Shown: positions 1-64,000, counted from the first letter of the stretch. The stretch: DNA of 64,000 bases from Lingula anatina (GCA_051362555.1 CM120640.1:60366788-60430787), one strand, 5' to 3'. Numbers and translations: made by a program. Notes: generated by a model from the letters alone, not told the origin.

Positions 1-361
1 AAGTTTATATTTTTGTCATTTCCATCTTGAGTATGCAGACAAACATTTATGTGCGTTTGCATATGGAGAAGGAGATTAATGTTTTGAGCATGTTCAAAAA
101 CAATTTCATCCCCTGCTTATATATTAATTCTCCTTTGATGGAAAAAGGGTGATTTCAAAGTTGTGCATATAATTGATTTCACATATGATACTTATACTTA
201 CCTCTATATGATAGGTGTGACAGAGCCTTAAGATGTGGCATTTTATGATAGTATTTTAGTTGTGGGACTATCATCAAATATCCCTTCTAATTGTTAGCCC
301 TAGATAATCTTTCTGTATTACCTGTGCATGCTAACATATTTTGTTTGGTTTGTATTTTCAG

Positions 362-7495: not shown

Positions 7496-8082
7496 TCTAA
7501 GAAGTGGCCATTTGGACTTTTTTAAAGCTGACTATGTAATGCAGGTTCCAATCACTTCCAAGTTCTGCCTCCAAAAAGTGTTGAGCAGCTTGGTGGAATG
7601 CCCTCTCTTTGCTAGCAGTCATGCATTGTGTGATAATTTTTAACTGACTGAGGAAGCTTATTTATTTCGCTGTATTCTTCCAGTTGAACTTTGATCAACA
7701 ACCCTGCAGCAGTGCAATGTTAGAAGTGTACATAGCTCATGGTTATTTATAACTTTTTTAATTAAATCTACATACAACTCTTGTAAAAACCAGTGTACAT
7801 AGAAACTATTTAAAGGAGCTGTAATTTGTGCATCATAGAAAATTTGTGAATATAGAAGAATTCCACGTCAGTTATTACAGTCACTTTGGGGACTGGATTT
7901 ATTTTATGGAATTGTTTTTCATTGTCACACTACTTAGAGTTCTATTTTTAACAAGTTGTTTGTAGATTTAAACCTGTGTATAAGCTAATTTTAAGTTTTT
8001 ATAATGTTGGTTTTGTACCAGTCCTTCCCGTCAAGTGTTTCATAAAATTAATGTGGAATTTGTGTTCATTTCCTATATTCAT

Positions 8083-27884: not shown

Positions 27885-29935
27885 GGTGCCAGGGCAGCAA
27901 GGGCTAATGTTTCGTGTGGTCCAATCTACCGGTGAATTCAGGATAATTCTGTGCAGAGTCTGGTAGTTGGGTAGGCCTGAAGAAGAGAAACCCTCTGCAC
28001 AACCTTGCATGCACAGATCAGAGGAGGAGACCCCTCCAGATAACCCCCAAGAGAACAACCTTTTGTCATTGCTGGAAGGAGACTTCAACTATGAAATTTG
28101 TTGTATTTATTACCTATTATTATTATCTGAATTATGTTATCTGAATTGTTGCTATGATTTATAATTATAATATTTATAATTGTAATAAATAGTTACAGAC
28201 GTACCTTTTTGGTAAAATATTTTGATGCATGTTCCTAAGTAATGATTGTTTGAAGAACTATTCTTAACAACTTTATGATGTATTTCTACTTTACAGTGAG
28301 ATTGTAGAAGAGTCGAGGAGAATGACGATACAATCAGTGTATCAGAAATAATGGAAGCATTAGAGCAGAGCAGGTGAATATCTTAGAATATGTAACAAAT
28401 TATATAAGATAGACATTATTTGATTTTCACCATATATTTTGTTTTTGTGTATTCTAATGGCAGTGCTTACACCTAAGTAAAATAAAAGACCAGGTTTTAA
28501 CAATTGATAAGTCTGCCCCTACGCTCTCATTCCTGTACATTTGCACACTCTTGGATGTAATCTTCTTTTTCTTACTAACACAGGGAGACCAAAGTTATTT
28601 TATTGCTATATTTTGTCAGACAGAGAAAGTAGACTGCACATACTTTTTCACTGTACAGTATTATATTTCTTCCTATATAACGCTGTGACCAAGAAATAGG
28701 ATGCACAAAAGAAACAATGAGGGTTGGCTGAGTGACTTGTACTGATGCTGATTCACAAATATGAAATGATCAAAGTATACATGAGGATTCTCTCTGTACA
28801 CACATTTTAGGACTGATTCATTTTCTATGACTTACCATACATATCAAGTTATATGACGCATTTATCTTAATTTAAATTTAAATTTCAGGTTGATCACTGG
28901 CCATTTGTTTTCTGCTTTAAGCAGTCTGTGCCGTTAAGCACTAGCCCAAGGCAATTGCCCACCTAAAGTGGCATAGCCACGTGTATAAAGAAAGAAAGTG
29001 ATGATGATATTCTCTTAGCCAGAATAACCCAGTGGAGAGCAGATTTGGATGAGGAATTGGACTTTACTCAAGATTTAGAAGAGCAAATCATTGGAGACAA
29101 AAGTGATCACGAAAATATCAAGTGGAGCAACGACATAAATACCCGGGACAGCAGTAATATCTGCTTCAGAGGGAGACCAGGTTTATCTCAGGATGCCATA
29201 GAGGAGTTGGGACGAAAAGAAAATGTGCCAGTCTCTATGCCAGGTCAGTTATTCTGCCTCTTTTTTACCCACGCCCTCTTAGTAATAATCTGTCAGCAGA
29301 CCAACCTGTATGCCCAGCAAGAAAAAGAGGCTTCACCAGGACAGCACAAATACCAGTGGACAGAAGTGACTCCTAATGAACTGAAATCATGGCTTGGCAT
29401 TATTTTCACGCTGGGACTTGTTACAAAGCCTAACCTCAAGGATTATTGGACTTCTAACTGGCTAACTTCTACCTCAGGTTTTTGCAAGGTGATGAGCAGA
29501 AACAGATTTTATGGCCTGCCATTTGCTTCAAAAATTTGAAACGGAAAATATATATCTAAAGATAATCATGTGTTTATTAGTATTATTATTCATTTTGAAG
29601 CAAAAAAAAAAAAATTATGTGAATACGATTTCATGCAAAATAAGATTTCAAATATAAAAACTTTCTTTATGACGTCGGCAAAATGTGTGTACACAGAGCA
29701 TGCGCATTTGCGTGAAAATAAACATGGCAGCCAATCTCAATGATAGCATGGACAGAAAATTTAGTAAATGATATTGTTACCTGAATGGTGGAACTGAGGA
29801 GACCTCAATGGCAGTCGCAGCCGGAGCAGCCGTCGTCACAGGAAAGCCAGATTCAGGAGCTCAACAGACTTTTTCGTCGGGTTAGCACCCCTACCAATAC
29901 CCATACTCGCCGTTAGGCTTCGCTCCACGGAAAAC

Positions 29936-37369: not shown

Positions 37370-39569
37370 CGGTAAAGTCTTGAAAATTTCGTCGCTTAAA
37401 AATTAATTAATATTTTTAATTGTGTAAATCCGACTAATTTTTCAAAATTACCTCTCCCCGACTCCTGGGTATGACGAAATTTTCAAAAATCCGGCCTTTG
37501 GGCTTTTATCCTTAGCGACTGTTATCTTTGACCCTCCTATATTGTGGGATATTTAAAACTACTTCCTAAGTCGTTTTCTGGTGGTAAATAATAATAATAT
37601 ATTTATTACTGCATCTCGATTAAGTTAAATTTAACTTACTGTACCCGAAAATGTGTTGAGAATTATCTTCTCGGTAAGAAACATACCTCCTGATAGAGGA
37701 GAAGGATCAAGATAAGCTTAATTGCCTCCTTGCATTATAACCTGGCCGCGACATATTTAAAAAAAATTATGCACTTGGCAACGTTTGTTGCATGCAGGGC
37801 TTTTCCCAGGATTGAATGTCAGGCCTTCTAAAAGTACCATCTGTAACTTCCTAAAAATTTACAGGGAGTTAAAATAATTGCTCCCGCAGACGATCTTCCG
37901 CAATTTAAGTTTCTTGAACTTATATGAAAACTGAACGATCTCCCGATGATGATATGAAAATTGCCTTTTCGTCTCGCTCGGATCGCGAACGATCTCCCTC
38001 TGACGATCTTACGCGAACAAAGTCCTGGCGATATATTACGCAAACGATTCTTCGCTGAAGATACATGTATGCCGTGAGCGGGGAAGGGGGGGGGGTTAAA
38101 GATGAAATTAAAAATATATATTATTTATAATATTCAAAGGGGAGGGGGGATTAAAATAATGATCTCCCGCTGACGATCGTTTGCAAACTAAGTTCCTTGA
38201 ACTAATATGAAAACTGCATTTTATTATTGCTTACATCGCGAACAATCTCCCGACGATGATATGAAAATTGCCTTTACGTCAAGCTAGGATCGCGAACGAT
38301 CTCCCTCTGATATGATCTTACGCGAACAAAGTCCTGAGGATATTACGCGAACGATTCTCCGCCGAATATATACCGTGAGCGGGGGAGGGGGGGCTGTTTA
38401 AAGATAAAATGAAAAAGACATTTTTTAAATCCAAAGTGTGTGTGTCTGGGGTCTGGGGTCTGGGGGGGGGGGGGGAGTGAAATAATGATCTCTCGCTGAC
38501 GATCTTCCGTTAACGAAGTTCCCTAAATCCCTTGAACTAATATAAAAATTGCATTTCATTCTTGCTTACATCGCAAACGATCCCGCGATGATTATCTTAC
38601 GCGAACGATTCTCCGCCGAAGATATGCCATGAGCGGGGAAGGGGGGGGGGTTAAGATAAAATGAAAATATATATATTATTTATTAAATTCAAAGGGGGGG
38701 GTTAGAATAGTGATCTCCCGCTGACGATCTTTTGCAAACTAAGTTCCTTGCACTAATTTGAAAATTGCATTTCATTCTTGCTTACATCGCGAACGATTTC
38801 CCGATGATGACATGAAAATTGCCTTTTCGTCTCGCTCGGATCGCAAACGATCTCCAGCTGATGATCTTACGCGAATGGAGTCTGCTATAAATATGAAAAT
38901 TTTCTTCTCGTCTCGTTTGGATCGCGAACGATCTGTTGACAATATTACGCGAAAGATTCTCTGCTGAAGCTATGAAAATTGCCATCTCGTCCCATTCGCA
39001 TTGCGAACGATCTCCATGGATGAGCCAGGTAATTGTTAAATGGTCCTAAATTGAACATGGACATGAATAGAAGTGACGGGTACATTTCCCTTCGAGATAA
39101 TATCTTGATTTTTCATTGTGTCTTCCTCATTTAGGACAGCCGCCGATAACAATAACGGCGTTACAAATGACAAAGCCGCGGCCTGTGACTTTTATTTGCC
39201 GGCTTGATAACGCACCTTGAGCCAGGTAATAGTAATGAAACTATTTAGACAAAAGGCCGATGTTCCCGCAATTAAGAATGGGGATTCACATCTTAACCAC
39301 TTATATTGTGAGTAACCGCTCGCAGGGGCGCACTATTGTTCCTATCTCCCATTGAGAGTGTTATCGGCAATGATATCCTGATCGTATCATTGTCTTGAAT
39401 CAACTGACGCATTACCTTCATGTTTGAGCTGGACAACGCGGCCATATTTGGTGACGAACTTTTCAAAAATTATTGAGTACCTCATTTTCAAGGTCGACGA
39501 AGTTTTCAAGGGGAAAAAAATTACCTCGGCGGAAAATCGTCTGCCGACGAAATTTTCAAGACTTTACCG
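37370..39569. mobile_element. Non-autonomous pogo-family element (2.2 kb)
   Basis: TIR CGGTAAAGTCTTGAAAATTTCGTCG at both ends, TA target duplication, and the same TIR as 47701-53574. No ORF. Confidence 0.93.
37865..39015. repeat. Complex internal tandem array (~270-bp higher-order units built from CGCGAACGATCTCC sub-motifs and G-tracts)
   Basis: Recurrent GATCGCGAACGATCTCCC, ATGAAAATTGC and GAGCGGGGAAGGGG blocks. Confidence 0.85.
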
Positions 39570-40228: not shown

Positions 40229-41284
40229 ATGGCTGACGTAGACTTGCGTGATATTCGAGCACTTGACAATTTGGACGCAAGAAGACGCCCTGAGCGTCGC
40301 CGACGCATTTTTCGAGCAAGGGTTAATTATTTTGATTTCTACGATGAACAAGATTTCAAAATCAGGTTCAGAATTTCTAAAGAAATAGCACGTGAGGTCA
40401 TAGCACTGATAGAGGATCGATTAGCACCCTTTACATTGAGAAATCGCAGCATTTCACCGGAGCTACAGGTGCTAACCTGTTTGCGATACTATGCAACAGG
40501 TAGCTATCAACGTGCTGCGGGTGATCTGAGCGGGATAAGCGTGGCTTCTGTGAGCAGGATCGTGCCTAGAGTCAGCGAGTCAATAGCATAACTAAAGCCA
40601 AGGTACATTAGGATGCCAGATGCAGAAGAAGCTGACAGAATCAGACAACAGTTCTATCGCGTGGCGCACTTCCCTGGGGTTATCGGGTGTATTGATGGGA
40701 CACATGTCAGAATTGTGTGTCCCAGAGGTATCCAGAATACTGCTAGATACATGAATAGGAAAGGATTTTATTCTTTGAACGTACAGGCAGTGTCCGATGC
40801 GTCTATGATGATAAGAAATGTTGTAACTCGTTGGCCAGGGTCGAGCCACGATAGCACAGTGTTTAGAAACAGTGCACTGGCTGAAAACCTTGCGAGTGGA
40901 AGGATCGGGGGTTTACTCCTGGGTGACAACGGATATGCATGCGAGAGATATCTGCTGACCCCTGTACTGCGACCAGCTACAGATGCAGAGACACAATACA
41001 ACGCTGCCCACAGACGCACAAGAAACATAATAGAGAGGGTATTTGGCGCCCTCAAGAGACGCTTTCCGTGCATCGGCATTGACTCACAGCTCAGGTGTCG
41101 AACAGATACTGCCCAGGCTGTCATCGTTTCTGTGTGTATACTACACAATTTATCACGAATGTGTGGGGATGAAGATTTCATACCTGAGGAAGGTGATGAT
41201 GAAGGCGTCAACATCCCAGTTGCACAAGACGGACAAAGAGGACTGTTATTCAGACGTCTGCTTATTCAGAACCATTTCGCGTAA
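40229..41284 (+). pseudogene. Harbinger (HARBI1-like) DDE transposase with one in-frame TAA at 40589-40591
   Basis: ORFs 40229-40591 and 40613-41284 share a frame. Motifs GCIDGTH, NRKGFYSLNVQ, WPGSSHD, LLGDNGY and IERVFGALKRRF. Confidence 0.93.
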
Positions 41285-41313
41285 TAACATGGAACTATTC
41301 AGCTATTAATAGG

Positions 41314-41344
<31 letters not shown>

Positions 41345-41473
41345 AACGATTCTCACTCTGTAACCAGAATTTATTCTTCAATAATAACACTATCAAGACA
41401 TATCACCTGTTTTGAGTTTTTATTTACAAATCGACAAGCGCACATATATATATATCCGAGTGAGAATCGTTTT

Positions 41474-42632
41474 TCAATTCAGCAAACTCAGTTCTCTTTG
41501 TAGTTTCTTTTCTTTCAATAGGAGAACTCTTTCCTTAATATTCATAATTTCCATTCTCCTGTGATGCTCTCTGCGTCGTAATGTGAGGATTTCGGTCGGT
41601 ACATCATAATTCGAATCCACACGCTGGGAAGCTGAAACAGAATATTTTGATAAATTCAGTAAAAGTGTAAAAAAAGAAATGAGTAGTGCCATCTAAACCA
41701 TCTGAACGTAAGGTTTTTGTATATAGAATTATAAAAGTTACTGTATAGTCATAAAAGTTATTAAAAATCTTGAATCGTTCTATTGTTGAATCTATGCTTG
41801 TCATAGGTCTAAATATGAGATAAGAATATAGTACTTATCAATATTTAAAAAGAGAATGCCTACATCGAGAAGCTTGTCTGTCGCGCCGTGTGCTCGTCCC
41901 CTGGATGGGGCTGTTCTGGCGTGGGGAAGCTTGTCTGTCGCGTTGTGTGCTTGTCCCTGGGACGGGGCTCCTCCGCCGTGGGGAAGCTTGTCTGTCGCGC
42001 TGTGTGCTTGTCCCCTGGATGGGGCTGTTCTGGCGTGGGGAAGCTTGTCTGTCGCGCTGTGTGCTTGTCCCTGGGACGAGGCTCCTCCGCCGTGGGGAAG
42101 CTTGTCTGTCGCGTTGTGTGCTTGTCCCTGGGACAGGGCTCCTCCGGCGTGGAGATGTGTGATGTTGCTGTTCATCGTTTGCCTCCATTGGCGGCGGATC
42201 AACATCGTCTCCGCCAGCTGGCTCAGCTCCCGGTACATCGAGCAGTGCGTCGTCATCGTACGGATTACGCGGAGGGCTATCCACAGCATCATCTCCGATC
42301 ACATCTATCACTGCTTGATTTTCTTGACTTAATTCAACCTCTTTTGGCCCCCCTCCAGTCTTTTTGGCAGCTTTTTTAATATTTGCAAATTCTTTCTTTG
42401 CTTTTATTTTCGCTCGTTTCCAGAAGTCTTTCACCTGCCTTTCAGTTCTTTTCCCGGCTTGTGGAAAATGTGCTGCTAATCTCGTTAGAATTTCTTTCCA
42501 CGCCTCATTTTTTCTTTGATTTGATGTGACATCATTTTTCTTTGATTCAATGATGTTGGACTTCTCCTTTATTAGTTCTGAGATGTATCCCTTCTCTTCA
42601 GCAGAAAAATTCTCCGCTCTCTTTCGGCTCAT
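41474..42632 (-). CDS. Harbinger Myb/SANT-like DNA-binding protein; exons 42632-41864 and 41631-41474
   Basis: RKRAENFSAEEK...AWKEI...QVKDFWKRAK...KTGGGP. A GTAGGC donor and TTTCAG acceptor join in phase to a coiled-coil last exon. Confidence 0.88.
41868..42152. repeat. Coding minisatellite, five 57-bp units
   Basis: CTTGTCTGTCGCG at 41873, 41930, 41987, 42044 and 42101. Confidence 0.95.
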
Positions 42633-45301
42633 TTTCACGTGCTCTTTACTTCTAATTTTTTTCTCATATGAGCTACACAGCTTATCTGCTTCAACGCTAG
42701 CGTGTGTCATCTGTTCATTTACGCCTACCTGATTGACACAGTTCAGTGATTTCTTTGTCTATGTATTCCTGTTACTTTCAACAGGAGGTCAAGTACAAGT
42801 TAAAACTGGTTTAGCTAAACCTGGTTTTTGGCTTTCCTACACTGTTAGTGAAATGCAATTTAGGTCTTGGGTTAGACCAGGTTTTGCTAGACTAGGTTTT
42901 AGCCTTAAACTAGGTTTAGTTAAACCTCCTTTATGAAATCGGCCGATAGTGTCTATCTTATTTAGTTATAATTTTTTAAAATTTTCATCCTTTTCTCATT
43001 ATGATATAGCAGTTGCAGAGGATACACTATTTTATTTTTCATTTTAATGAGATGGAACTACAGAAAAATCACACTGCATTCATATAGGTATATCACACTC
43101 TGCTAGGGGCGCTACAGTAGTAACTATCCAGGGGCAGTGAAGTGCGAAACTGATACCGACCTGCTGACATCTCGCCTATGACACCCCTTTTTTAAATCTC
43201 TCTTTTAGCGCCGCATAAAAAAAAACTAATATAAGCCATTAACTAAATAAGCTGTAAATCAAAGAGTAAAATCCGGTCACGTGATTTTCCTGTGTTGCAG
43301 TCTTTGAGAAGTTTCAGTTCAGGGCGTTTGAAGTTTTGCCTCGACAAAATGCTCAAAAATGTCAGGTAATTACTGGTTGGAATTTTTTGAAATTTATGAT
43401 GAATAAAGCTCATGAAATTTGCAATATTATGTAGAAAAATCATGAAAATTAAACCATGCGAAGTATAGTTAATTTGATGCGCAATATTTATAGTACATGA
43501 TTTGCATGGAAGCCATCCCAGCCATGTGCTTGTGCGGTCGCCAATTTGGGTTTGTTTCCGGGTCATTAGCTTAACATAGAGCCCTAATTGCCCCAATTGG
43601 TCACAAGCAATTTGAGCTGCAGCTACAGCTGAGTGATCACTGCTAGTCAGTGGTCACGGGTCTTTAGCTGAAGAGTGTGGACACTTTTGGTGAAATTTTG
43701 CAGTTAAAAAACTTCAATATCTTTGTTGCTTATAGGAATATTTTAAAAATTCCAAAAGAATTCATCTGTTTTTTGCATTACCTTTCAGAAGATAAAAGTA
43801 TTATAATTTTCTGATCAGTTTGAAAATTTTTCTGATATACCTAACTCATAATATCACCACTGATCTCAGAGGTGTTTAATATTGTAAATCATTTATTTTA
43901 GTGTTTGTAAATCTTTAGTAAAGCCAAAGGTATCATGGTGGGTGGTGTGAGAAAGGAGTGGACAAAGACTAGTGCTTTGTCTGGAAATGAGTAACTAATG
44001 AGGCAACGAATGACAAGGGCTGGCTAGACGTAGTGTCTCAGTGTAAAGTGCCATTCCGTAACAAGTAGAGCAAGTTAGTACAATGAATAACACACTACGC
44101 ACTAGGAGAAAATACACTTCCTTTACAAAAAGGTAATTTTGATCGACATTATATTATATTATATTATATTATATTATATTATATTATATTATTTAAAAAA
44201 TCTATATATAAATATGCATGTATCTTTTTACTTGAAATTCCAAATTATTTTACAGATATAGATATAATTTCTGGAAAATATAAATTGCTATTCACAAGCC
44301 TGGAAACCGTTGAAACCTGGAAACAAGACAAAATTTGCCCTCTTGGAAACAGACATAACAACCATAACTGCCACAGACAACTCTTCAGATGTTAAAGATG
44401 GTATGAGACTGAGTTTAGGCTATCTCATCAAGAAGTACATAAATTTTAATTCACTTAATAAAGAAGTACATAAAAACGCCTTTGATATTTCTGGGCGCTA
44501 AGATTTATTTTGTCAGAAGTGCGGATGCATCAAGCAGTTTTAGTGAAAAGTCATCATCAGATTCTAGGTCAGTAATGGCAGAAGAAACTACTAATAGTGC
44601 TAGTGTTAAAACTGAGCTTGGGCACATCACTGTGAGTGATGATAAACCAGGCAGGATGGGTAAACGCAAGTGGTTGGCTTCCAAAATCTCTAGGATTGGG
44701 GAAAAAACCCTCTTCAGATGACGTACACTATTATCTCACTTCTGGTGTCTCTGTAAGGATACAGTTATGGTTATCATTGTCACATATCACTTGTAAACTT
44801 TAGGAATTCTTGCTTATAGGCATGAGGAGCTTTACAACTCGAAATGGAATAACCTATACTAAATTTTCGCAATTTGAGAAAAAAATCCTTAAATGCTTAA
44901 TAAAATTTGTAAAATGCTAAATAAAATGTGAAAGGAAAAAGTCTTCGTAATATATCCCCTCATAGATCTCATACTCTCTCAGTTATAGTTCACAAACATT
45001 TACAAGGTCAAGGTTGATCGTGTCGACTATTTTTGAATACAATCTAATTATAGCAAGGTCAATTTACCATATTTAGAAATTGACCCATGACACAATGCCT
45101 ATTTTACCCAATAGTGTTGCGCGTGTGATCGATAAGTATTGTAAAGCGTGTTCAGCGTGTGTTATGAATGATCATGGCGGGCGCAGGATCCAGAAAAAAA
45201 TGTCGGAAAGATGTCGGTCCAAGAAGTTTATTTTTCAACAAAGTGCAGAAGGAAATGTGCAACCTTGCCGTGTGGGGGTGGGATAGGACAAAGGCTTACT
45301 T

Positions 45302-45778: not shown

Positions 45779-48174
45779 TGAGAAGACAGTGGGGTGCTTT
45801 TCACAGCACAAACCCCCGGAGACGCCACGTGGAAAATATGGTATGTACCGTGCAATCTTGTTAAAAGTAATCAGTTTTACTGTTGTGCTAATGATAAATG
45901 CATCATATACTTCGTGGGAGAACTCTTAATTTATATTGATTAATTGAAAATAACAACAACAACAACAACAACAAGAAAAATACTACTATCATACATTTCT
46001 TCTTTAGAAAATCTCGAAAATTCCCCCTGCGTTCACGGGTCTTGACCATTTGCAACATTGTATCTTTTCACTTCCCCCTGTCGTGATGAAAAGGCTATCA
46101 TAAACAAAACACTATATTTTATCAGAAAAATGCATTTTTTCGCAAGCATTGCTATTGAAACAGTTGAGCTTTATTTTGACTGTTTTACGATAGGGTCTTA
46201 ATTGATCATGAGTTGTCAGTCAACGGCGCATTACTTTCATGAACTGTCAGTCATCAGCGCATTACTTTGGAGCTTTTAAGAATATTTTGATAGATACATT
46301 GCACCTTTCAATGGCACACATCTCCACGAAAAATACGTTGGATATGTGATTTATATATTTCAAACATATCGTTATATATCTTGAACATTCCCTAGTTGAC
46401 ATATCTGTTACAAATCGTAACAAGCTATTCCATTTACACAACTGAAAAATCAATACTAGAAGGGACCGGTACCTTTGTAGTTTTAACTGGCTAAAACTAG
46501 TCTGTTGTCTAGACGACAAACTGCCTGTCATCAAGTAACTGGTAGTAGATTTAATTGAAAAATCAATAAACTGGCACCAGCCGGCAGCCTACACTCATGT
46601 AAGTTAATTACTGTTGCTGTATTGACTTGGGGCTCAGACAAAACTGAATTTAAGGCTGAAAGTTTAACTCAAGAAGTTTTCATTGCCCTAAAATGATGTC
46701 GCTTTTAAGATTTTAAGTAACAAGTATTATTGTCTAAAGCAGGGATGTTTTTTTTTTTTTTGTGCAAAATATCATTCTTGAGATGGATGCAGATCTGTAA
46801 AAAAAAATATATATGGGGGGGGGGGGGGGGGGGACATACCCACTGACTTTTTCACTTATTGGTAGTCTCACCCCAGCTTAGGCTACTGTTTCTGCCTGCC
46901 ATAAAAGTTATTGCATTTTTTGGTATACTTGGAAAATAAAGTTACTGAAAGATCTCGCCCTTAAGCAATTGTAAATCTTAACTTCTTTGAACTTTGCAGT
47001 ACATAAAAACTAATATTACCCTACTATTTACTTGGCATATTAGTTAATTTATAATACTGCCCCACTGCCATGGCTTTCAATGACATGTCATTTTATAATT
47101 TTTTAATTTCAGTTGACCTGCCAGCTATGAAGTACCAAGGCCCAGGTATGTGGATTGTTCAGTGACACTTGGAAAGTAAACGGCGATTCTCAATTGTTGT
47201 CCCTGTCTGTAAGGGCTTTGTCTTTAGAATCTTCTTGTCTTTAGAATTTCATAATGTCAATATACAGGATTGTTTACACAGTTTTAAATTTTATTGAATT
47301 TTAATTACAAACATGGTTCGCACAAATCTGGAAAATCCTGGAATTTAGATAAAATCCTGGAATATCCTGGAATATGCTTGTGCTCCTTGAATAGTCCTTA
47401 AATCTTTAAAGTAGTGCTGGAGAAATCCTTGAAATTTGAAAATTATTACGTCTATTCGGTAGTTTTCTAGTTAGTCTACGTGAAAGACGCAGAGTAGTAT
47501 TTCGTGTTATTGTGTTTGTTGAGCATCGAGCAATTCGGCTGTTTCCGCGAAGCAGTGATAGAGTCGTTTTAGCCAATCACTGTTGATTTAACATCGACTG
47601 TTCGGCATCGAACACGTGTGGCCCAGCATGCGCACGGTGCGAGACGAGTGGCTCTGTGAATGATTAACCAAGCATGTCAACAACAAAAGGTATTTGTGTA
47701 CGGTAAAGTCTTGAAAATTTCGTCGCTTAAAAATTAATTATTTTTTTAAATTGCGTTCATTCGACGATTTTTTCAAAATTACGCATCCCCGACTTCTGGG
47801 TGTGACGAAATTTTCAAAAACCCCGACTTTCTATCTTACATTCTTATCGGCATTTAGCCTTGTTCCTCTGATATTGTGGGATATTTATCACTACTTCCAA
47901 GGACAATATCTGGTTGTAAATAATTCTTTTTTTTTAGTGTATCTCGATTTTGTTATGTTGACTTACCCGAAAAGAAGGTTGATAATTGTGTTTGCGCTAT
48001 GAAACATAACTCCAGATAGAGGAGAGAGATCAAGATAAGCCCAATTGCAATCTTACATTGCCTGGACCCAGCATATGTTAAACACTATACATTTAAATAG
48101 TAACGTTTAATGCACGCTTATTAAGCGGAGGTCATGGTAAATGAAAACAAACGACGAAATAAAATCAATTTATA

Positions 48175-48560
48175 CGGTTTATTAGGCACATAACTTACTA
48201 ACGCTAATATAGGGCTACTTTGGGTCAAGGCTTTCGTTGATTTTATGTTAATTCAAACAATGCATTAAGACTGGATGAATTCCTACTCTCATAGAGATTA
48301 ATATACTATGAATAAAATTTTGCTCAAAATATTACATTGGCCTTATAACGATTCATCAAATGTTTAAGTTTTATTAAGCACATAACTTACTAACGCTAAT
48401 ATAGGCCTACGTTGGGTCAAGGCTTACGTTGATTTTACGTAAATTCAAACAATGCAATTACAGAGGAGACTGGATGAATTCCTACTCCCATAGAGATTAA
48501 TATACTATGAATAAAATTTTGCTCAAAATATTACATTGGCCTTATAACGATTCATCAAAA
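48175..48560. repeat. Tandem duplication (~195 bp) inside the pogo element
   Basis: GCACATAACTTACTAACGCTAATATAGG...CCTTATAACGATTCATCAAA occurs twice. Confidence 0.9.
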
Positions 48561-48635
48561 GTTTACTTTCATTATGAGATGTCAAGTATCTGTCTCTCAT
48601 TGACTTTTATTTCCCTTATGAAATTGGTGCTTCAG

Positions 48636-50375
48636 TCAAAGATCTCTGAAAGGATCCTCAGTGTCATCTCTCGTGTCGGAGAATCCCAAAAATTCACTCT
48701 CCTCGTCACTGGTAAAAAAATCATCTGGGACATCATTGGTTGGCGAAGTTCTCTCCCCCTTTAGCGCGCTGGTGATCCCAGTGGTTTGAAATGATTTCAC
48801 GACCATTTCGCGACTAACTTTGCTCCAGGCTGACGCCACCCACGCAACAACGTCCTCCTTACTCGCCGTTGGCAATTTATCGAACTTGCCCTTTGCTCCC
48901 ATGGCTGCCTGTCGCATACGCTCCGTCCATGCTTTTCTGAGGTGTACCTTGAATGGTCTATTCAACGACACATCGAGGGGCTGGGCCTTGGATGTACACC
49001 CCCCAGGGATGATGGCCATGGTTGCATTGGCTTTTCGTGTCACCTCCTTCACCTTCTCTGTCGTGTGCGCAGAAAACGCGTCAAGAATCAACAGGGCAGG
49101 TCGTCTGTCCGTGTATGGCCGCAGGATGTGTTTCACCCACTTGATCATGAGGTCCTCGGTCATCCACCCCTTGGGATTCACTTCGACCATCCACCCTGGA
49201 GGACACTCCAGGGATAGCTGACGTGATCCTGAAAAATAGATAACATTAAATTTAATAACTGGTAAAATACGGTGGATATTGCTTTGCTTAGAAATATATT
49301 GTTAATAAATACTTAAACAGTGGTGTACAGTTTACTTATGTACTAACTTGATTAGGTGGTACATTTTACAGAAACTCTATTTATTAATAAATTTTAATAA
49401 AAACTCTTTAATTTAATACAAAACATTTGATACCATCATGGTTTACTACAAAATTTTTTTTTTTTTTTTTTTACCTTTGAAAATTACCATTGATGGTAAT
49501 TTGGCGCCGTCTGCAGCTACCGCCTGCACTACAGTGAAGTGCCTCTTCTCGGCTCCAGTGGTTAAGATGCGGACATCTTTCATTCCTTTTTTGTGTATGG
49601 TCCTCTCGGGCACCAGATCAAAAGTCATAGGAACCTCATCCATGTTGATAATAAATTGGGCGTCGAATTCTTCCTCTTCGTTTATCTCCCCAAGATGAGT
49701 ATAGAACACCTCTAGTCTGTCCTCGAGGTCGCTGGGTAAACGCTGGCTCTCGGTGGTCCTGGCTCTAATAGACAAACGATGTCTTTTTAAGAAGTTTGTA
49801 GCCCACCCCTTGGAAGCGTTGAAGTCAACATCTAATGTTTCTGCCAAAGAGAAAGCATGAGCACACAAGGACTCTACTGTCACTGGCAATTGGAGGTCTC
49901 TCTGCTCCAAGACCCATCTTAAAATGTCCTCCTCGGTGTTATTTCCAAGAAGACATGTTCTCCCGCTGCCTTCCTTCCTGCCTGCATCATTTCTCGGGAC
50001 ATCACGGGCTAGTTCTTTCTTCCACGTGCTGACAGTTGTGCGTGGGATGCCGAGGGATTTTGCTATGGATGTTATTCCATGTAAGGATGCCAGGTCTACC
50101 AACTCTTTTTTCTCGGCCAAGGAATATGATTTATATTTCCCCCGTTTGGCAGGTATGGTGTTGGTGTCAAGTTCAAGATCATCTCGTCTCCGCTTAAGAG
50201 CGACACGCTCCCCAGAGAGCAACGGTGAGTCATCTGGATTCGTAGCAGTCTTCTTCGGCCTACCAACGGGACGTTTGGCAGGTGATCTTGGTAGCGGCTC
50301 CTCCAGCCAACGCCGCGGCACGGTGTCTTCGATGACGGTCGTCTTAGAGAAAAAATCTTTAATGTTGCGCTGCAT
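48636..50375 (-). CDS. pogo transposase, 497 aa; exons 50375-49475 and 49228-48636
   Basis: Open frame across a GT-AG intron. N-terminal QRNIKDFF, AT-hook GRPKK, two HTH domains (FNASKGWATNFLKRH), and catalytic NMDEVP / ILDAFSAH / QPLD with 35 residues between the last two Asp. TATATAA ~45 nt upstream; AATAAA ~25 nt after the stop. Confidence 0.95.
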
Positions 50376-51626
50376 AGTGACAGTGTCTTATGCCTCTCCA
50401 TCTTTTACCCCCTTCTTATATACCCACATGCCAATGACACGTGGCAGCCAGCTTAATCTGAGGTGTAAGAAACAAACCGTATTGATGCTTTTTATCAAAA
50501 GTTTTAATCGCAACGCTGATCAATTAAGCACTGTTATGGGCCGCGTCAGTGATTACTCGGTAACCTGGATAACATTACAGGTAAGACATGCCACGACCAG
50601 CTTAATCTGCTGTGTAATAAACAAGCCGCGTTGATGATTTTTATCGAACATTTTAATCATGACGCTCATCATGTCATGTCAGCCGTTAGTGTTGATAGCA
50701 TCACAGGTAAGTGAGACCATGGCCACTCCCTCGATTTTCGCTGTTATTCGTTTTGGTTGCAAATGCTACAGAATGAATACTGCTGGATAAAAAGTAAATC
50801 AAATCTGTATTATAATTTGGTTGATTGATGACAAAGATCCTTTCGCATATATAAGATGTTGGCTTTTATATTCCCCCTTCCTTGCAAAGACTGCCACTGA
50901 CTTCGCCCTCGTTGCTATGGGATGGGCGACTGAAGTGAAACGCGAGGCGCTCACAGCTTAACGATGCAGACACAAGTCTGACGTAGTGTAAACAGTAAAC
51001 ACATGATAATTAAAGAGTAAATGCAGCTTTTTGACACTTTATTTTTTATTTTCATTTTTCGTGTTATTTGTACCATTACAACATCTTGCATATCGTTAGT
51101 AGTTCTCTGTTAAATTAACGGAATATGTCATCACAACCAGAAACCTGAGATCCTTTACTTATTGTTTATTTTTCTATAAATGGAAATATGCAATAAAATT
51201 TTGTAATTGACCATTCGATATTCTCTCTCTGTCTTTTCTGCTTTTCTATGTATAACACAGTGTGAATAACACAGTTTGAAAGGTTGCTAGCGATGTACAT
51301 GCAGCACAGAATAAAGCATTTAGTATTTAAGCGTTTCTACAGACACATTACATCTTATGTTTTGAATTGTTTGTTATTTAATAAAAACTGGGCTGATTTT
51401 ACACAAGAACCGAATTGGAAGCACTTGCACTGATTGACAAAAGACAAATCTACGAAATGCTGTTCCTTTGGATATGTATGATAAAATCGTACAATCCTGT
51501 CTGAAAGGAATAACTTCCATGTTTCTGACACCCTGTGAAAATGGAAACTAACAATGTTTCACAGACACGTTAGACGAATTTAATTGCTATAGTAATATTA
51601 TACATTTCGTAACATAATGGTATATG

Positions 51627-51666
51627 CTTTTCTGAATGTGTTGTGGCCCTTAAAAGGGCCGTTCAG
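51627..51666 (-). terminator. Histone-type 3' stem-loop (51660-51645) with a purine-rich downstream element (51634-51627)
   Basis: Minus strand reads CTGAAC GGCCCT TTTA AGGGCC ACAAC ACATT CAGAAAAG, starting 46 nt after the HIRAN-like stop codon. Confidence 0.85.
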
Positions 51667-51706
51667 TGACAGTTCACAAGCCCTGTCTGGCTTCTTGTCG
51701 GCCCTG

Positions 51707-52328
51707 CTACCAACACCGTTCAACAGCAGTCAGCAGATCCTTCATCCTCTTCAGAACCTTTTGATTGTCAGAAGAGAATAGTAGGACACAGGGAACTTCC
51801 CGACCACCCTGCCTCAACGTCGACCTTTTGGGGTTGCCGGTTACCTCAACCCGGATGTCGCCACCATGCAGTAGAAAGTGAAAACATTCCCTAGAAATTT
51901 CTTTCGGCAGGTGCCCCACAGTAATGTTCCCTCGCTTTACACGGATGCAATATCGGTCTTTTCGCCGGCCAACTGAAATGGAATGTGAACCAATCATTAT
52001 TAATCTTGTGGCTTATACAGCATCAAACATATTTACCTTAACGTAATTATAAAGGCGAGAACGCATTAAAAAGGAATGACCTGCAAACATAAGAAAAATA
52101 CTAGGTATTTTTTGTGACCAATGTCTGCGTTCGCAACATATGTGCATTTACGTTAACATATGATATTTTAAAGTTATTTCTGCGAAAGTCTTGAAATATA
52201 ATTATAAAATGCAGGTATTACGTACCAGGATCATCTACATCAACAAGGAGAGATTCGCCAACAATAGGTTTCCAGTACACTCTGTAGACGTGGTACCCAC
52301 GAACAACTGCTGCGTACGAAAACTCCAT
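51707..52328 (-). CDS. HIRAN-like domain protein, 122 aa; exons 52328-52226 and 51972-51707
   Basis: Exon 1 MEFSYAAVVRGYHVYRVYWKPIVGESLLVDVDDP (absent from the ORF track) splices via GTACGT...TTTCAG in phase to VGRRKDRYCIRVKRGNITVGHLPKEISRECFHFLLHGGDIRVEVTG...GGREVPC. TATAAAA lies ~30 nt before the ATG. Confidence 0.85.
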
Positions 52329-55300
52329 GATTTGTGTAAATCTTTTCGAATGCACCGTTTTTATACATTCTAGTAATGGTCTTGAAAACATGATCAAAGT
52401 CGCTTAACATACCTGGATTCCAATAGTTATCATAAATCCTATCTATTTACTTGTCTGATACGCAGATCAAAGACAGTTACCTGGTTATTGATCAAGGGCA
52501 TGCTCCGTATGTGAAGCTATTTGACTTTAACTGTTCAGTGTCTGTTAATAAGGTAAAAGCCATACTGCATGTGATCATCAACTTATCGCGATATCTATCT
52601 GCCTATTATTCGTGATTACTGTGTGCCTTTATCTTTTTCTTGTCGCTGTGCTCAAATCCCTGTACATAAGTATAGCACGAAATACTCATATATTTATATG
52701 GGTAGGCTTTACTATTAATTGCTCATTTAAATGTGCTGATTTTTTTATTTGTTTATATCGTTAACGATATAGTTAATGTTTCTATGAATTTTATCTATTA
52801 TTGTACATAAGCGAAAAGGTGTGTATCACTAAAAAATCTAAAATTCGTAGGGCTGCATGTAGCGGTTTACATATGGAGATGCAAACATTAACTATTTGAG
52901 TTTTAAACCGCCGACTTATCATTTATATATTTGTATATATATATATATATATGGTCCCATTTCAAAACAAACTGCATTGATGACCTGTCGAATTAATCTA
53001 CTAGAAGCCCAGCATACCGATTACGCTAGCCGCAAACGAGCTAGGTAATCGTAACAGCTCAATGGACATGAATAGACGCTACGGATGCATTTCCCTTCGA
53101 GATAATATCTTGATCTTTATCATTGTGTCTTCCTCATTTAGCACAACCATCGATAACATTGAAAGCGTCACTACTGACAAAGAGCCGCGGTACATGACTT
53201 TTATTTACCGTCTTCAAGACGCACCTGGTGTAACCGTGTGTATGTGCTAGGTAATAATAGGCCTAATGCCACAAAAGACAAATGCCGTAGCTCCCGCATC
53301 TAGATCTATATCATAAGTAGCCGCCCACATATATTGTTCTTATCTCTTACTGAAAGTGTTATCGGCAATGTTATTCTGACCGTCTTGAATGAACTGACGC
53401 ATGCGTATTACGTTCATGGACAACGCGGCCATGTTGGGTGACGAACTTTTCAAAATTAACGTGAGGGACCATTTTCACGCTCGACGAAATTTTCAAAGGT
53501 AAAAAAATTACGTCGGCGGAAAATCGTCGTCCGACGAAATTCTCAAGAACGACGAAATTTTCAAGACTTTACCGTATTTAACCTTGCGTGGGAACACGAC
53601 CCGGAATTCAAACAGTGGGTGAAACGTGTGCCGAATGACAAGAAAAGAGCTAGCTGTTCAGTTTGCTTCTCTACATTTGATATATCGAACATGGGTGTTT
53701 CTTCACTGAAATCTCATGCTAGAGGTATGAAACACCGCGAAAATATGAGATTGACAAACTTGAATTCCTGTGGACAGTTATCGCTGAGTTCGTTATGGGG
53801 AAATACTATGAAATCACCTGGAAATAGTTGTACTACACTCACGCCTACATGTACCACTACGTCAGCATCAAGCAAGTCTTCATGTACCACAATGTCGGCA
53901 TCAAGCAAGTACGCTACGTTGGACACGTTTGTTTCAAAAGACGATGTTGTCAAAGCAGAGATTCTGTGGACATTGAAATTAATCACAGATCATCAGTCGT
54001 ACAGGTCTTCACAAAACATTGGTGAATTATTAAGGAGGATGGACCCTAACAGCAAGGTTGCACAACAATTCACTTGTGGCGAAAAGAAATCTGCTTACTT
54101 GTGCGTGTTTGGATTGGGGGAATATTTCGCTAGACTCCTGAAAGAAAGTGTAACTGGGCCATTTGTTATTTTGTTTGATGAAAGTCTGAATAAGAAGATG
54201 CAGAAGAAACAGATGGATATACATGTGAGATTTTGGAGTGAGGAGTGCCATAGAGTCGTGACAAGATACTTCACATCTGAATTTCTAGGTAAGTGTCATT
54301 TGAAATTAAACTTTTCCACTCTTAATACAATAATAATGATAATAGTGTATATATATATTAGATGCTAGACTTTATTGTCATAAGGTTAACTTGCCGTAAT
54401 GATGTATTTCAGTGAAAATTTATTAAAAACATGGGGCATATATATATATATATATATGATTTCATAATTATAACAAGATTTAATTATTTAGTCATATTTA
54501 ATCATTTCTGAATAAACAGCTTATATATTTTATTTTATTTTTTCAGGACATGCTACATCAGATGACATGGTCTCACATTTTAGTCAATGTGTTCTCAATA
54601 GTGGTCTACCAATCAAGAACATGTTGCAGATTAGCATGGATGGACCAAATGTGAATTGGAAATTCTATGACACAATATCGAGGAAAGTAGCAAATGACTA
54701 TGGATCCTCTCTCATCAACATCGGGTCATGTGGTTTACATATAGTCCACAACAGTTTTAAAGCAGGAGCAGAGTCCACAGATTGGAATGTAGCATCATGT
54801 CTTTCAGCCCTGTACTACCTGTTCAAAGATTCGCCAGCTAGGGCTGAGGACTATGTCAGAGTGACTGCAAGTAACATCATGCCACTGAAGTTTGTAAAAC
54901 ACAGATGGCTTGAGAATATTCCAGTATGTGACAGAGCTTTACTGATATGGAACAACATAGTATAGTATGTCGAAGCAATCGAATCTAAAAATCTCAAGAT
55001 GCCAACAAACATCTCGTACAAAGTTGTTAGCGAATGTACAAAGGATGAGCTGTTTCTTGCGAAGATGAATTTTTTTAAATCTGTCGCTTTGCAGCTAGAG
55101 CCATTTCTAACTAGGTATCAGACAGACAACCTATGATACCCTATTTGAGTGATGATCTCTGTTCTATCCTAAGATTGCTAATGAAGAGATTCATCAAAGA
55201 TGACGTGATGCAAACAGCAAGAAATCAGGAAAAACTAGTCAGAATTGATGTAACTGACAACAAGATCCACCTGGATTATAATAAAGTGGATTTGGGATTT

Positions 55301-58866: not shown

Positions 58867-60284
58867 ATGGCAAACCTGCTGCGGTTTGCCAGAAATCCTC
58901 GCAGATATTTATATATATATATATACCTTTTAGACTGAGAAGAGAAGAAATTTCAGTAGAGATTTATTTGATTTTGATGGAGCAACTGAGCAAGAACTCA
59001 TTGAAAGATTTAGATTCAGTAGAAATTCAATACTGTACTTAGAAAACTTACTTCACAACCAAATAGCTCCAGAGACAGAAAGGAATCATTCTTTGAGTGT
59101 TAGAGAGCAACTTCTAATAGCACTGCGATTTTTCGCCTACGGTTCTTTTTTGAAAGTTTTGGGGGACACCGTTGGGCCCAGCAAATCGACTGTTAAGTCG
59201 AGTGGTCAGAAAGGTGGCCTTGGCTCTGTGTGAGCATCAAGCTGACTTCATCAAATTTCCTGCTACACCCCAGGCTGGGCAGGTGTGAAGGACGTTTTTT
59301 TTAGGATAGCTGGTTTCCCGGGATGTATTGGTAGCATTGACTGCACTCATGTGAGGATTCAAGCGCCTAGTGAAAAAGAGCCAGCGTTCGTGAACAGAAA
59401 AAAACTTTCACAGCATTAACGTACAGGCTGTATGTGACCACAAAGGTGTGTATTTTGTTTAGAAATTTTAATTCAAACAAATGGTCCTTACTGGCAAAAA
59501 AGTGAAAAATAACTGTAGATGAGACACTGTCATTCAGGCGAGTGAGCGGCCATCTTTGTAATAATATTGTGACACAGTGGCCAGGGAGTGTCCACGACTC
59601 ACATGTATTTAACACCTCCTCTCTTGGAAGAGAGCTAGCAAGGCATAATACATCAGAGTTAGGTACACTTCTTGGTGACAGCGGTTATCCCTTTAAACCA
59701 TACCTGCTAACACCATACCTGAATCCCACCACCAGGGCCCAAGAGAGGTTTAACAGATCCCATAAGGTAACACGGACATTGATTGAGAGAGAATTTGGAA
59801 TATGGAAAAGAAGGTAACTAGCTGGCAATATCCACCAAAAATTGTTATAAAATTATGTTTGTGAACATATTTGTACTGGGGGCACATGCTGGGGGGGGGG
59901 GGGGGGGGTCACTGCTACTTTGCTACATTTAAGAATGTACCAGCATATGCATTTAATACTTAAATATTCCATTAATTTATTCAGTAACTATATTTTCTTA
60001 ATAAATTCCAAATTTTGCTGTCTACATAAATTGTTTGCTTCTATTGGGTATTCTATTTATTTCCAGATTTCACTGCCTTCATGCCGAAATTACGAATGTC
60101 ACCAGGGAGGGTGTGCAATATCATTGGTGCGTGTGCAGTCTTGCACAACGTAGCCATTCTTAGGAATGAGCCACTGCCAGATGGAAATGATCCTGGTCCA
60201 GGCCCAGATATGGAAATTCAGTACAATGGCCCTGAAGACGGCAAGGCCGTAAGGGACCATGTGGCAAGGGCATTTTTCTCTTAA
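58867..60284 (+). pseudogene. Harbinger transposase, three exons, frameshifted
   Basis: [58 protein letters not shown] and CAVLHN. Confidence 0.9.
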
Positions 60285-60684
60285 TAATAATAAGTACTAT
60301 GAATATAGCCAAGTAGAAAAAACTTTAATATAAAACTTTAATATATTTTTCATGTAATATAAACTGTTTAATTTTAAATTTAAGTTTCAAGTACAAAGAA
60401 TTGTTTTTGTAATATTATTTGAACTAATAAATTGATCTATTTACATGTATGTACATACTACTAGTACATGTATACTGTCATATTGTACATATGTTGATTA
60501 ATAAACCAATAATATTTTAATACTGTAATTGACAATGAGTAAAGATATATTAACATTTTAGAAACATGTATACAACTATAAGTCATGTAAATCTGCAAAA
60601 AACAATAAAATGCCTGCTTTGCTATTGACAAAGGGTATTGATATACATAAACATTTCACAATTTAAACATTTTATACAACTACT

Positions 60685-60905
60685 TGCTGAGAGGCATGCA
60701 AAAATGGCGATGACTTGGGTACCACCGGGAGGCGAGCGCAAACGAGGTATACCAAGGATAACCTGGAGGAGAACCTTCTAGAATGATCTGCAAAGAGGTA
60801 ACATCAGGTGGGAGGAGATGGAGAAGGCCGCTGCCAACCGGACAAGTTGAAAAAAGTTTGCCGCCCAATGTCCTACGTCGGACAGGAGGAACTAATAATA
60901 AATAA
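60685..60905 (+). mobile_element. 5'-truncated RTE-type LINE 3' end
   Basis: AMTWVPPGGERKRGIPRITWRRT...WEEMEKAAANRTS...AAQCP followed by a (TAA)n/A-rich tail. Confidence 0.75.
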
Positions 60906-60985
60906 TAAAATAATCTGAAAGAAAGTGCTTTTAGAGATCACACTGTTAGAGAAGCAACTTTTTTTTAGCAATAAATTAACTAGCT

Positions 60986-63193
60986 CTACTCAGTTGCTAA
61001 AAGTTGCTTTTCTAATAGTTGAATCTCTAAAAGCAGTTTCTTCTCAGTAAGTTTGGCATTAATTGCCTCCTGCTTCAAAACTTGCTTCTGTAGACTTTCC
61101 ACATCTGATTCTGTTCTTTCTACAATGAAGAAAAGAGATATAACATATACTGTAATGTTACTTATGCAAAAGTTCAAGCCTTTTATTAAAAAAATTGTTA
61201 TTTTTACTTAACATAACAAATGAAAACAGGTACTTTGGGTACAAGCACAGACAGTAACATATTGTGTATAACTGAAGTCTGCACTGGCTCTTCAATATGT
61301 CTTACCTGTTCTTGACATGCTACATGTGTGCTTCTTTCTTTTCTTTGGAATTTGGGTTTCTCTTGACTTGACTTGCTAGTAGTGGGGACGGGAGGCGGGA
61401 ACGGGAATGGTGGAGAATCTGTAAATAGTTGTAAAATTATATAATATTTACCTGTAATAAAAAAATACATACATTGCATGTATAAAACTACTAGTATATT
61501 TTACTTTTTTTTTCTTTTTTTTAATAACTATCCATAATCTGGTAAAAACATCAAAGAAACTAGTTTCCTTTTGAATATTTTTATGATATTATTATCATTA
61601 TAATTATTTATTCATTTATTATTATTATTTTTATTTATTTATTGATTTTTTTAAATAAGTACATAGATTTCTAAACATACTTTGGCAATCTAAATCATCT
61701 AGCAGTGATTCTAAATCCACTGTAACTATATCATCTGTACTTCCTTGTAAATTAGGGATTTCAGCCACTTCAAAGAACAAAAAAATTCACATCAATTCAA
61801 TTAAAACAATTTGCATTTTCAATTATTTTAATTATTTTATTGAAATAAAATATTTGTTTTGATTTTAGAGAATTGATACAATATGATATCATTTGTGATA
61901 GTAAAAATGACATGGAAATGGCATTAGCAAATTTTCCTCATTTTAGTGTATGTGGGAGAGTGGGTATCTAAGTTTCAAAAGAGACACAAGTCCATTGTAA
62001 TTTTGCTCAAGTACTCTTGCCTGGCACGCAATGATCTCGTGACCCAGTTCTGAGCTGTCACTCACTTTTGAACTGGTCAAAACAAGTGCGCTCAAACGCA
62101 GTTCGGTTTTACCGTTTGATTCATGGAAGAGCTTACGCTGTATTTTTTAACTCATTTGCAAGGATTGGGTAGGATATTGGGATTATTATCACTGATCAAC
62201 ATGTTTAGTTTGAGGACAACAATGCCCATTAGATCTATTCAGTGGAAGAAATATATTTTTTTAAAGTTTTGCTGGAACGTGCACGATGATACGGCGCGGG
62301 ACCATTCAGGAATTTGGGAAATGATGGAATTACTGTAACGGAGGTTTTATCTAACAGTACACGGAACAAGAAGTATGCACTTATCAGTATGCTTGGATGT
62401 ATGGTTACGGTCTCTGTTAGATCTTTTCACAGTAGAGGAAATATTGTTTTTTGTACTTTTTCTGAAACATGTTCGACAGCGTGGGAATGGGACATTACGA
62501 CAGTAGTGCATCGGAGGTTTTATCTAAGAGTAAAAGAGGCCAAGAACAATGCACTGGATGGAAATACATGTCTAAATGTTCAACGCAGGTTTTTATCATA
62601 ATAAAAGGTAACAATCACATTAATTGCTTTTTCTTGAGTTCCACCAATAGAAAATGTCTCGACGAGTGTAAGGTCAAGGTCATTTGAAATGCACGTCTCT
62701 GAAGCAGACGACATAATGCATTATCGTCAGCATAGCATTTATAAAATTACTAATCTATTTATTAAATCAATAATTGTAAAATAATTTAATCATGAAGTAC
62801 CTGTTGTCTCAAACCCATCGGACACACCACAAAGGCGGGGTCGTCCTTGTGCAGCTGTATGATCTTTTCTGTTGTGGCATCCAGCGGTGGAGCAGGAGCT
62901 CCACCCCTAGTCTTGGCACTATGGCTGCGTAGCCCACAGTGAGCTTTCTTGGCCGCAGTAACCAGCTGCCTCCATTTTTCTTTACATTCTTCATGTATTC
63001 TGCTAGCTGTACCAACAGCAGTGATTTTCCTGCTAATCTTGAGCCACACATCAAGCTTGGACTTGTTGTCCAAGCTTAATGTGTGCTTGTTCTTGATGGT
63101 GCTGTGGTCTGCCTCTACCAGCTCCACCAGTAAAGTCTGTTCACTGACAGACCAGTTTTGTTTTCTGCTCCTCTTTTTCTCGGACATTGACAT
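60986..63193 (-). pseudogene. Myb/SANT-like gene of the second Harbinger (exon 63193-62801 plus small downstream exons)
   Basis: RSRKQNWSVSEQTLLVELV...VWLKISRKI...CKEKWRQL...KTRGG; coiled-coil last exon LQKQVLKQE. Confidence 0.8.
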
Positions 63194-64000
63194 ATTTCCA
63201 AAGTAGATCAAAGCAGACAACACAAATGAGCAATTAATTATCATATATATTTATTTTGTTTATAGAAACCTATTGCATTCTGGGGAATTTTATTTCCAAA
63301 TATGGTCTGGATAAGTTGTTTATAGCAACTAAACACTTGTTAAGAAAATTAAACGTCCGTTAACTAACCGGCTGTTTAAACTCTGTTTATAAAACACAAT
63401 TTTAACCGCTGTTTAGTTAGCAGTGTTTAGAGAATTTAACTACTGGTTAGGCTTATACACTGGTTAGTGGTAAACGTCCTTTATAAAACCGGGCCCTGGT
63501 GGTTAACTAGAGGGGTGGATGGCCCAGTTCAAATGGTTGAAAATAAGAACTGACTGTGGTCATAGTGCTGTTATGTGTGTCACCTGTATTAATGCCAAAA
63601 AAGATAATGTATTGACATCAGGCAAAAAGAAACTGGCTACAACAAAGAAGGATGACCTGGTAAAGCACATGCATTCTGTAGATCATCGGACAGCCTCATC
63701 TCTACCAACAATGAGAAAAAGTTTGCAAAAGGCTTGCCATCATGCTCATAACACGGTGAAAAATGCCATTATAGCCCAGATGCGAACTGTCCTGACACAA
63801 GCAAAGGAAGCCATTCCTTCAGTGAAAAATTCAAAACTAATCAAACTTCAAATCCAAAATGTAAGTTTACTTGTGCAAAGGTGTATGTGATACAGTAGTT
63901 GCTTAATTAATTTGAGTAAAACAATTATTTTGTTAATTTTTTTTTCTTGGTCTGGCTAGGTGGCTCCCACTGTGCAAAGACAAAAGAATGTCCTGCGCGA

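Follow-up and report, generated by a model that had tools for sequence, protein, structure and literature searches.

A probable histone-type 3' end signal behind a spliced HIRAN-family gene of a pogo-type transposon in Lingula anatina

In a 64,000-nucleotide (nt) stretch of the Lingula anatina genome (GCA_051362555.1 CM120640.1:60366788-60430787, hereafter the window), we found a pogo-type DNA transposon that carries a short spliced gene of the HIRAN family in addition to its transposase gene, and behind the HIRAN-family gene lies a stem-loop followed by a purine-rich tract, as at the 3' end of replication-dependent histone mRNAs. On sequence grounds, the feature is real and beyond what chance readily gives; it probably serves, or formerly served, as a histone-like 3' end, and the gene itself is no histone gene. 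With the balance tipping just in favour of this view, we read the hairpin and tract as a genuine histone-type 3' end that was borrowed by the transposon and would act as a working signal for the HIRAN-family gene. Such elements likely borrow the histone pathway for the timing of this gene, because a distantly related transposon of another animal has the same layout.

Hairpin and purine tract behind the HIRAN-family gene

The minus strand at the hairpin reads TGAAC-GGCCCT-TTTA-AGGGCC-ACAAC, with A/C-rich flanks around the stem. The Rfam model Histone3 (RF00032) covered positions 51665-51620 with 36.1 bits against a gathering score of 34 (E 7.8e-7), which confirmed the first-pass annotation in its claim of a canonical hairpin with histone geometry, and this was the sole match in the window among 4227 Rfam families. 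A 21-nt consensus hairpin pattern matched the window once and none of 100 shuffles, and base composition predicts about 0.0009 perfect consensus hairpins per window. The hairpin was present in the minimum-energy fold and in the centroid fold alike. Its stem begins 46 nt 3' of the TAG stop codon of the HIRAN-family gene (51709-51707) on the same strand, and CAGAAAAG begins 10 nt past the stem, so that both spacings given in the annotation held.

In histone mRNAs the hairpin lies 25-60 nt after the stop, according to bioRxiv 10.64898/2026.10.14.759114. The 46 nt in the window fall within this range, and the hairpin has the diagnostic second G-C pair and the third loop U. The likeness to a replication-dependent histone 3' end thus extends from the 6-bp stem and 4-nt loop, with these two positions, to the A/C-rich flanks, the purine tract at 10 nt, the stop distance and a short inferred 5' untranslated region. 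The window tract is also similar to the tracts after the H3 and H4 genes of another animal (DNA of assemblies G001-G003, described below). Unlike a replication-dependent histone gene, the window gene encodes a HIRAN-family protein, has an intron and sits in a DNA transposon rather than in a histone cluster.

The earlier statement that the window holds no histone coding sequence was also upheld. A tblastn search of the window with H3 and H4 (H2A, H2B and H1 were not among the queries) gave a best E of 0.82, and no histone Pfam domain was present in the 46 long open reading frames (ORFs) of the window. A captured histone coding fragment was rejected as a candidate, as neither H3 nor H4 found a match there. 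The sequence behind the stop of the transposase was likewise searched for a hairpin; the best site agreed at 11 of 16 positions and was rejected.

A second element with the same layout and related motifs

Three metagenome assemblies filed as prokaryote genomes (G001-G003) are rich in animal DNA, including histone genes and transposons; going by protein relatives, this DNA is probably from a sponge. The HIRAN profile gave at least 77 matches in them, many of which are fragments (150 of the 227 candidates in G001 were scored), and the loci examined comprised 30 + 10 loci, 19 more regions and some others. At 8 distinct loci a HIRAN family member and a pogo transposase were no more than about 2 kb apart, in varying orientations, and the pairing of HIRAN gene and pogo element is therefore general.

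One locus, L052, has the layout of the window. It is an internally deleted pogo-type element that retains its two inverted ends, with TA at each, and it encodes a HIRAN tail covering the last 44 profile positions (profile E 8e-7) and, on the other strand, a fragment resembling an acidic transposase tail. A hairpin agreeing with the consensus at 16/16 positions lies 21 nt past the HIRAN stop and is followed by CAAAAGA; in G001-G003 this tract also stands, equally spaced, after the H3 and H4 genes. The L052 hairpin scored 25.6 bits, against 27.6 for the H3 hairpin of the same assembly. Its placement has a chance probability of about 1e-4 (any of 6 hairpin-plus-tract matches in 40.6 Mb lying 10-70 nt past any of the 22 HIRAN stops), or about 5e-4 when all 32 hairpin cores are counted, both figures having bacterial DNA in the denominator and assuming random placement.

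These figures bear on the possibility that the window hairpin is a chance match, noticed since very many windows were read. Some 250,000 windows were covered, the Rfam score is only 2 bits over the cut-off, and the 16-nt core pattern gave 32 matches against 16 for its reversed control in 40.6 Mb, some of them within coding sequence. Against chance stand the simultaneous fit of stem, both flanks, tract and stop distance, and the repetition of the layout in L052 at the probabilities given above. In addition, ACC follows 5 nt after AAAAG in the window, as it does after H4 and two further motifs in G002, a post hoc agreement with a different host that chance would give in about 1-2 of 100 cases. 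We consider a chance match improbable.

Further hairpins of this kind were found behind other genes of G001-G003. A pattern of hairpin plus AAAAG matched 6 times and its control once, and 5 of the 6 lay 21-58 nt past a same-strand stop, namely those at H3, H4, L052, L046 and L043; no recognisable gene preceded the sixth. At L046 (G002:C77:99395-99426, minus), a perfect histone-type hairpin, accompanied by a tract like that of histone genes, begins 58 nt past the stop of a DUF7869 transposase-like gene. At L043 (G003:C2:200424-200456, minus), an ORF downstream of an exonuclease-like exon stops 28 nt before a hairpin and tract, and no second copy of this locus was found. A looser pattern compared with its control gave 20 versus 1 matches in G001, 2 versus 6 in G002 and 1 versus 0 in G003, many of the G001 matches being tandem copies within two repeats. 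In at least five repeat copies on contig G001:C18 (L044, L045, L049, L050 and L155), an unclassified transposon-like ORF is followed at 110-220 nt by histone-type hairpins in tandem, and two copies of this repeat lie upstream of HIRAN genes. This wider pattern of putative signals supports borrowing by mobile elements, yet raises the background rate.

Hairpins near the HIRAN genes of L002, L003 and L048 were rejected as candidates, being upstream or belonging to H3, and at L159 none of the 32 assembly-wide hairpin cores lay behind the HIRAN end. Among 201 + 301 further genomes searched, matches occurred only in G001 and G003, together with one short fragment in G357. No relative was found in viral contigs, and neither phages and plasmids nor the first genome-contig scan gave a match.

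Expression and possible function of the signal

Four of nine RNA-seq runs (X1, X4, X5 and X7) were compared with the window, with 6-25% of each run sampled. In the poly(A) run X1, the transposase was covered at 48094-50457 with a depth of 2-17 on the expected strand and none in the intron bin, and its reads carried signs of a second allele or copy. Depth was zero in all 8 bins of the HIRAN-family gene region (51246-52821) in the same run. About one read at 51837-52033 was present in X7 (oligo-dT), and X4 and X5 (selection unspecified) had none on the HIRAN-family gene and hardly any on the transposase. For the HIRAN-family gene, neither a splice joint nor a cluster of ends appeared in the four runs, no reads lay at the predicted cleavage site in any of them, and the AATAAA region at 51038-51170 had no sense-strand reads in any of them. 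The blank HIRAN-family gene in X1 fits both a non-polyadenylated message and a silent gene.

The signal could be functional without an S-phase message, serving mainly as a terminator by which the downstream transposase promoter is shielded, or else as a site for SLBP within a spliced polyadenylated message like the long form of H2A.X. The HIRAN-family gene and the transposase are co-oriented and 1.3 kb apart, an intron should favour polyadenylation (PMC3661734), and AATAAA hexamers follow 540-660 nt past the stop. The two-form mRNA of H2A.X (H2AFX) is alike in having a stem-loop with poly(A) signals further down, which permits a short and a long message, and both forms are made, the long one retaining the hairpin (PMC4604434); H2A.X is a histone, however, and short and long forms of the window gene are hypothetical. 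The tandem hairpins 110-220 nt after the other transposon-like ORF also resemble terminators more than mRNA ends. Against this explanation, the poly(A) run that contains the transposase lacks sense reads on the HIRAN-family gene and on its AATAAA region, L052 has no gene downstream of the hairpin inside the element, and the stop distance in the window lies within the range important for message stability (bioRxiv 10.64898/2026.10.14.759114). We hold a terminator or an SLBP site of this kind to be unlikely.

Several observations weigh against a borrowed and working signal. L052 was detected by the Rfam hairpin search and missed by the HIRAN profile search; it is a single deleted copy, and no second copy of its HIRAN end was found. 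Its 3' flank is non-canonical (CTCAT), with a score under the Rfam cut-off, and its protein does not group with that of the window: in a 55-row tree the window protein stood with P0001, P0193 and P0003 (99/95), and the short L052 fragment fell elsewhere without firm support. With L052 outside the group of the window protein, the signal would therefore have been either gained twice or kept patchily. The first-pass annotation had proposed conservation of the hairpin in related elements as a check. One positive came from L052, an element of an unrelated host with the same layout 21 nt past its HIRAN stop, but 21 of the 22 distinct HIRAN ends outside the window (G001-G003) had no consensus hairpin, so it is no family trait; several of these 22 ends are degraded, which leaves the position of the true stop uncertain. 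A comparison of coordinates likewise placed none of the 32 hairpin cores within 600 nt downstream, on the same strand, of any of the 77 HIRAN matches. The combined HIRAN-plus-hairpin pattern had 0 matches in viral contigs and 1 bacterial chance match in metagenome contigs, contigs of uncertain animal content.

The related motifs and the RNA data add to these points. A hairpin was present at only 1 of the 12 DUF7869 loci, the 11 others being without it. Because hairpin-plus-tract motifs are common in repeats (20 versus 1 for the control in G001) and some, at L139, L140-L142 and L147, follow no recognisable ORF (one is a 132-nt tandem repeat), the module may be spreading as a functionless unit. 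In none of the four sampled runs was there a transcript with its end at the hairpin, and silence accounts for the blank HIRAN-family gene equally well. The intron sets the gene apart from replication-dependent histone genes, and SLBP crosslinking and immunoprecipitation (CLIP) in human cells found no real non-histone target (PMC4604434).

Patchy presence, at one of the 22 other HIRAN ends and one of the 12 DUF7869 loci, and the frequency of the module in G001 repeats would also suit a hairpin that is a real histone-type 3' end piece, acquired from another repeat or from a histone gene and by now a functionless passenger. However, no H3 or H4 coding remnant lies nearby, the transposon is intact with transcripts of its transposase present, and random capture is unlikely to put a hairpin on the correct strand and at a fitting distance after such a gene in each of two distantly related elements. 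A passenger of this kind seems to us rather unlikely, a shade more so than the terminator or SLBP site.

If the hairpin and tract are a borrowed working signal, as we favour, SLBP would bind the hairpin and the small nuclear ribonucleoprotein (snRNP) of U7 would pair with the purine tract, as in the known histone pathway. CPSF73 would then cut 4-5 nt past the stem, near 51640, and at least part of the message would be left tail-less. The HIRAN message would build up during S phase, or in oocytes and early embryos, and would be degraded once replication ceases; with this cut, transcription would also terminate ahead of the transposase promoter 1.2 kb downstream. The HIRAN domain of HLTF binds DNA 3' ends, and cut-and-paste elements can gain copies during replication. 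From its fold, the HIRAN protein of the element may bind DNA 3' ends at transposon ends, excision breaks or forks, and may aid jumping of the element or repair of the donor site during replication. A bolder proposal is that animal DNA transposons repeatedly took over the histone 3'-end pathway, the pogo element making a spliced, tail-less, SLBP-bound message for a helper protein that binds DNA ends only at host replication, and unrelated elements of other animals (L052, L046 and L043) doing likewise; this we put forward tentatively, as possible and yet doubtful.

The arrangement is built from known parts. No description of a transposon or non-histone gene using the histone 3' signal, nor of HIRAN genes in pogo elements, was found in searches of the open literature, and the words 'transpos', 'non-histone' and 'intron' do not occur in the main text of bioRxiv 10.64898/2026.10.14.759114. 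In PMC4604434 and PMC3661734, replication-dependent histone mRNAs are called the only known non-polyadenylated cellular mRNAs, and stem-loop processing is treated as incompatible with introns. If the bolder proposal is true, messages that lack a poly(A) tail would not be confined to histone genes, and U7 processing could take place on a spliced transcript. Both rules would be broken by a natural substrate that is spliced and encodes no histone, and such a substrate would directly test what the pathway needs beyond its two RNA signals. It would also provide a concrete means for a transposon to tie its activity to S phase or the oocyte, and poly(A)-selected RNA-seq would miss such genes.

The HIRAN-family protein, the pogo element and neighbouring sequences

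Removal of the intron is needed for an open frame, and the spliced HIRAN-family product has 122 amino acids (aa). It aligned with the relatives P0003 and P0170 with no gaps over the first 101 residues and shares their terminal Trp. The splice model is thus supported by homology, because the joined exons align gap-free with relatives, and the earlier description of the gene as spliced was borne out. Most HIRAN relatives are 110-130 aa long, and those whose DNA was read have no intron in the HIRAN gene. The nearest relative, P0001, aligns only from about the start of exon 2, which suggests that it shares the intron with the window gene. Within the intron, a 44-nt stretch (52080-52037, minus) has a strong acceptor and donor; its inclusion would shift the frame and end the protein at 60 aa, and it is a possible poison exon.

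The HIRAN-like identity claimed at first held through family membership and not through the exons themselves, neither of which alone matches Pfam HIRAN (PF08797). Pfam HIRAN matches occurred in 24 of 40 alignment rows of relatives (E <= 0.01), the window exon not being among them, and the spliced window protein matched the family profile with E 8e-43; the HIRAN label is given because the relatives match. A word-based protein search with exon 2 gave no match, and a full HMMER scan with the same exon gave 1011 clusters at E <= 0.001. Searched against PDB, the family profiles found HLTF chains only (E 0.003-0.007). A model of P0003 (predicted local distance difference test score, pLDDT, 90) compared with the HIRAN domain of HLTF at template modelling (TM) scores of 0.66-0.69, and a structure atlas assigns P0003 to HIRAN clusters. 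These results indicate a HIRAN fold for the family, as modelled on the relative P0003 and not on the window's own protein. A Glyco_hydro_65C match was rejected as below cut-off.

In comparison with the HIRAN domains of HLTF and Rad5 (PF08797; PDB 4xzg, 4s0n), the P0003 fold is alike, and an Asp and a VGHL.K stretch align. The window protein differs from them in being a stand-alone, transposon-borne protein of 122 aa with no motor domain and about 16% identity, and from most relatives in lacking the Asn that precedes the conserved Asp.

The pogo element spans 47701-53574 (5.9 kb); its inverted ends are perfect over 25 bp, and TA stands on either side (Table 1). Both genes are on the minus strand, the HIRAN-family gene first and the transposase 1.3 kb further. 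The spliced transposase has 497 aa, is open throughout and shows DD35D spacing (D350 to D386). BrkDBD was found in three of the seven nearest transposases listed first and in 5 of 7 in all. By its TA duplication, inverted repeats and DDE_1 and HTH_Tnp_Tc5 domains, we assign the element to the pogo superfamily; its ends and its transposase substantiate the earlier claim that the HIRAN-family gene belongs to a pogo transposon. Its features agree with Passer as defined in PMC7386202 (Gao et al. 2020), being alike in TA duplication, inverted ends of <40 bp, HTH_Tnp_Tc5 and DDE_1 domains and DD35D. The element differs in its length of 5.9 kb, against the 1.2-5.2 kb reported there, and in having a second, non-transposase gene. 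Neither 'HIRAN' nor 'intron' occurs in the main text of this pogo survey, and the text searched does not mention a two-gene pogo design with a HIRAN partner.

Table 1 Features of the pogo element and its two genes in the window
Feature	Position	Strand	Basis or remark
TA target-site duplication, left	47699-47700		sequence
Left terminal inverted repeat, 25 bp perfect, then subterminal repeats	47701-47725		sequence
Pogo transposase exon 2, DDE_1 (E 1.2e-22), second and third Asp	48636-49227	minus	Pfam; covered in poly(A) run X1
Pogo transposase exon 1, HTH_Tnp_Tc5, first Asp	49474-50375	minus	Pfam; no depth in intron bin in X1
TATA-like box 5' of transposase start	50413-50420	minus	promoter element inferred from sequence
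Three AATAAA hexamers (starts 51170, 51050, 51043)	51038-51170	minus	540-660 nt past HIRAN stop; possible alternative poly(A) site
Purine-rich downstream element, candidate	51617-51634	minus	CAGAAAAG at 51634-51627, ACC 5 nt later
Histone-type stem-loop	51660-51645	minus	6-bp stem, 4-nt loop; predicted cleavage near 51641-51640
HIRAN-family exon 2	51707-51972	minus	homology to relatives
HIRAN-family intron, 253 nt, GT-AG	51973-52225	minus	gap-free alignment of spliced protein
HIRAN-family exon 1	52226-52328	minus	67% identity over 27 aa to relative P0003
TATA-like box 30 nt 5' of HIRAN start codon	52358-52365	minus	promoter element inferred from sequence
Right terminal inverted repeat, 25 bp	53550-53574		sequence
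TA target-site duplication, right	53575-53576		sequence

The pogo element splits a transposase-like frame on the plus strand after its ninth codon: the frame runs over 47674-47700 (ATG at 47674), resumes at 53577 and extends to 56236. It had no Pfam match, and by its motifs we take it to be hAT-like. A non-autonomous 2.2-kb relative, which shares the 25-bp ends and the TA duplication of the element and is filled with unrelated internal repeats, lies at 37370-39569; it is without a HIRAN gene and without a hairpin, and it is inserted in a frame with a motif that is presumably helicase-like. Elsewhere in the window, two DDE_Tnp_4 and Myb/SANT gene pairs (40592-42758 and 59506-63250), which we assume to be of Harbinger type, and a DDE_Tnp_1_7 frame (28967-29539) were found. 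The 3' exons of a Nipped-B-like cohesin loader gene occupy about 360-7500 on the plus strand, and the host is an animal.

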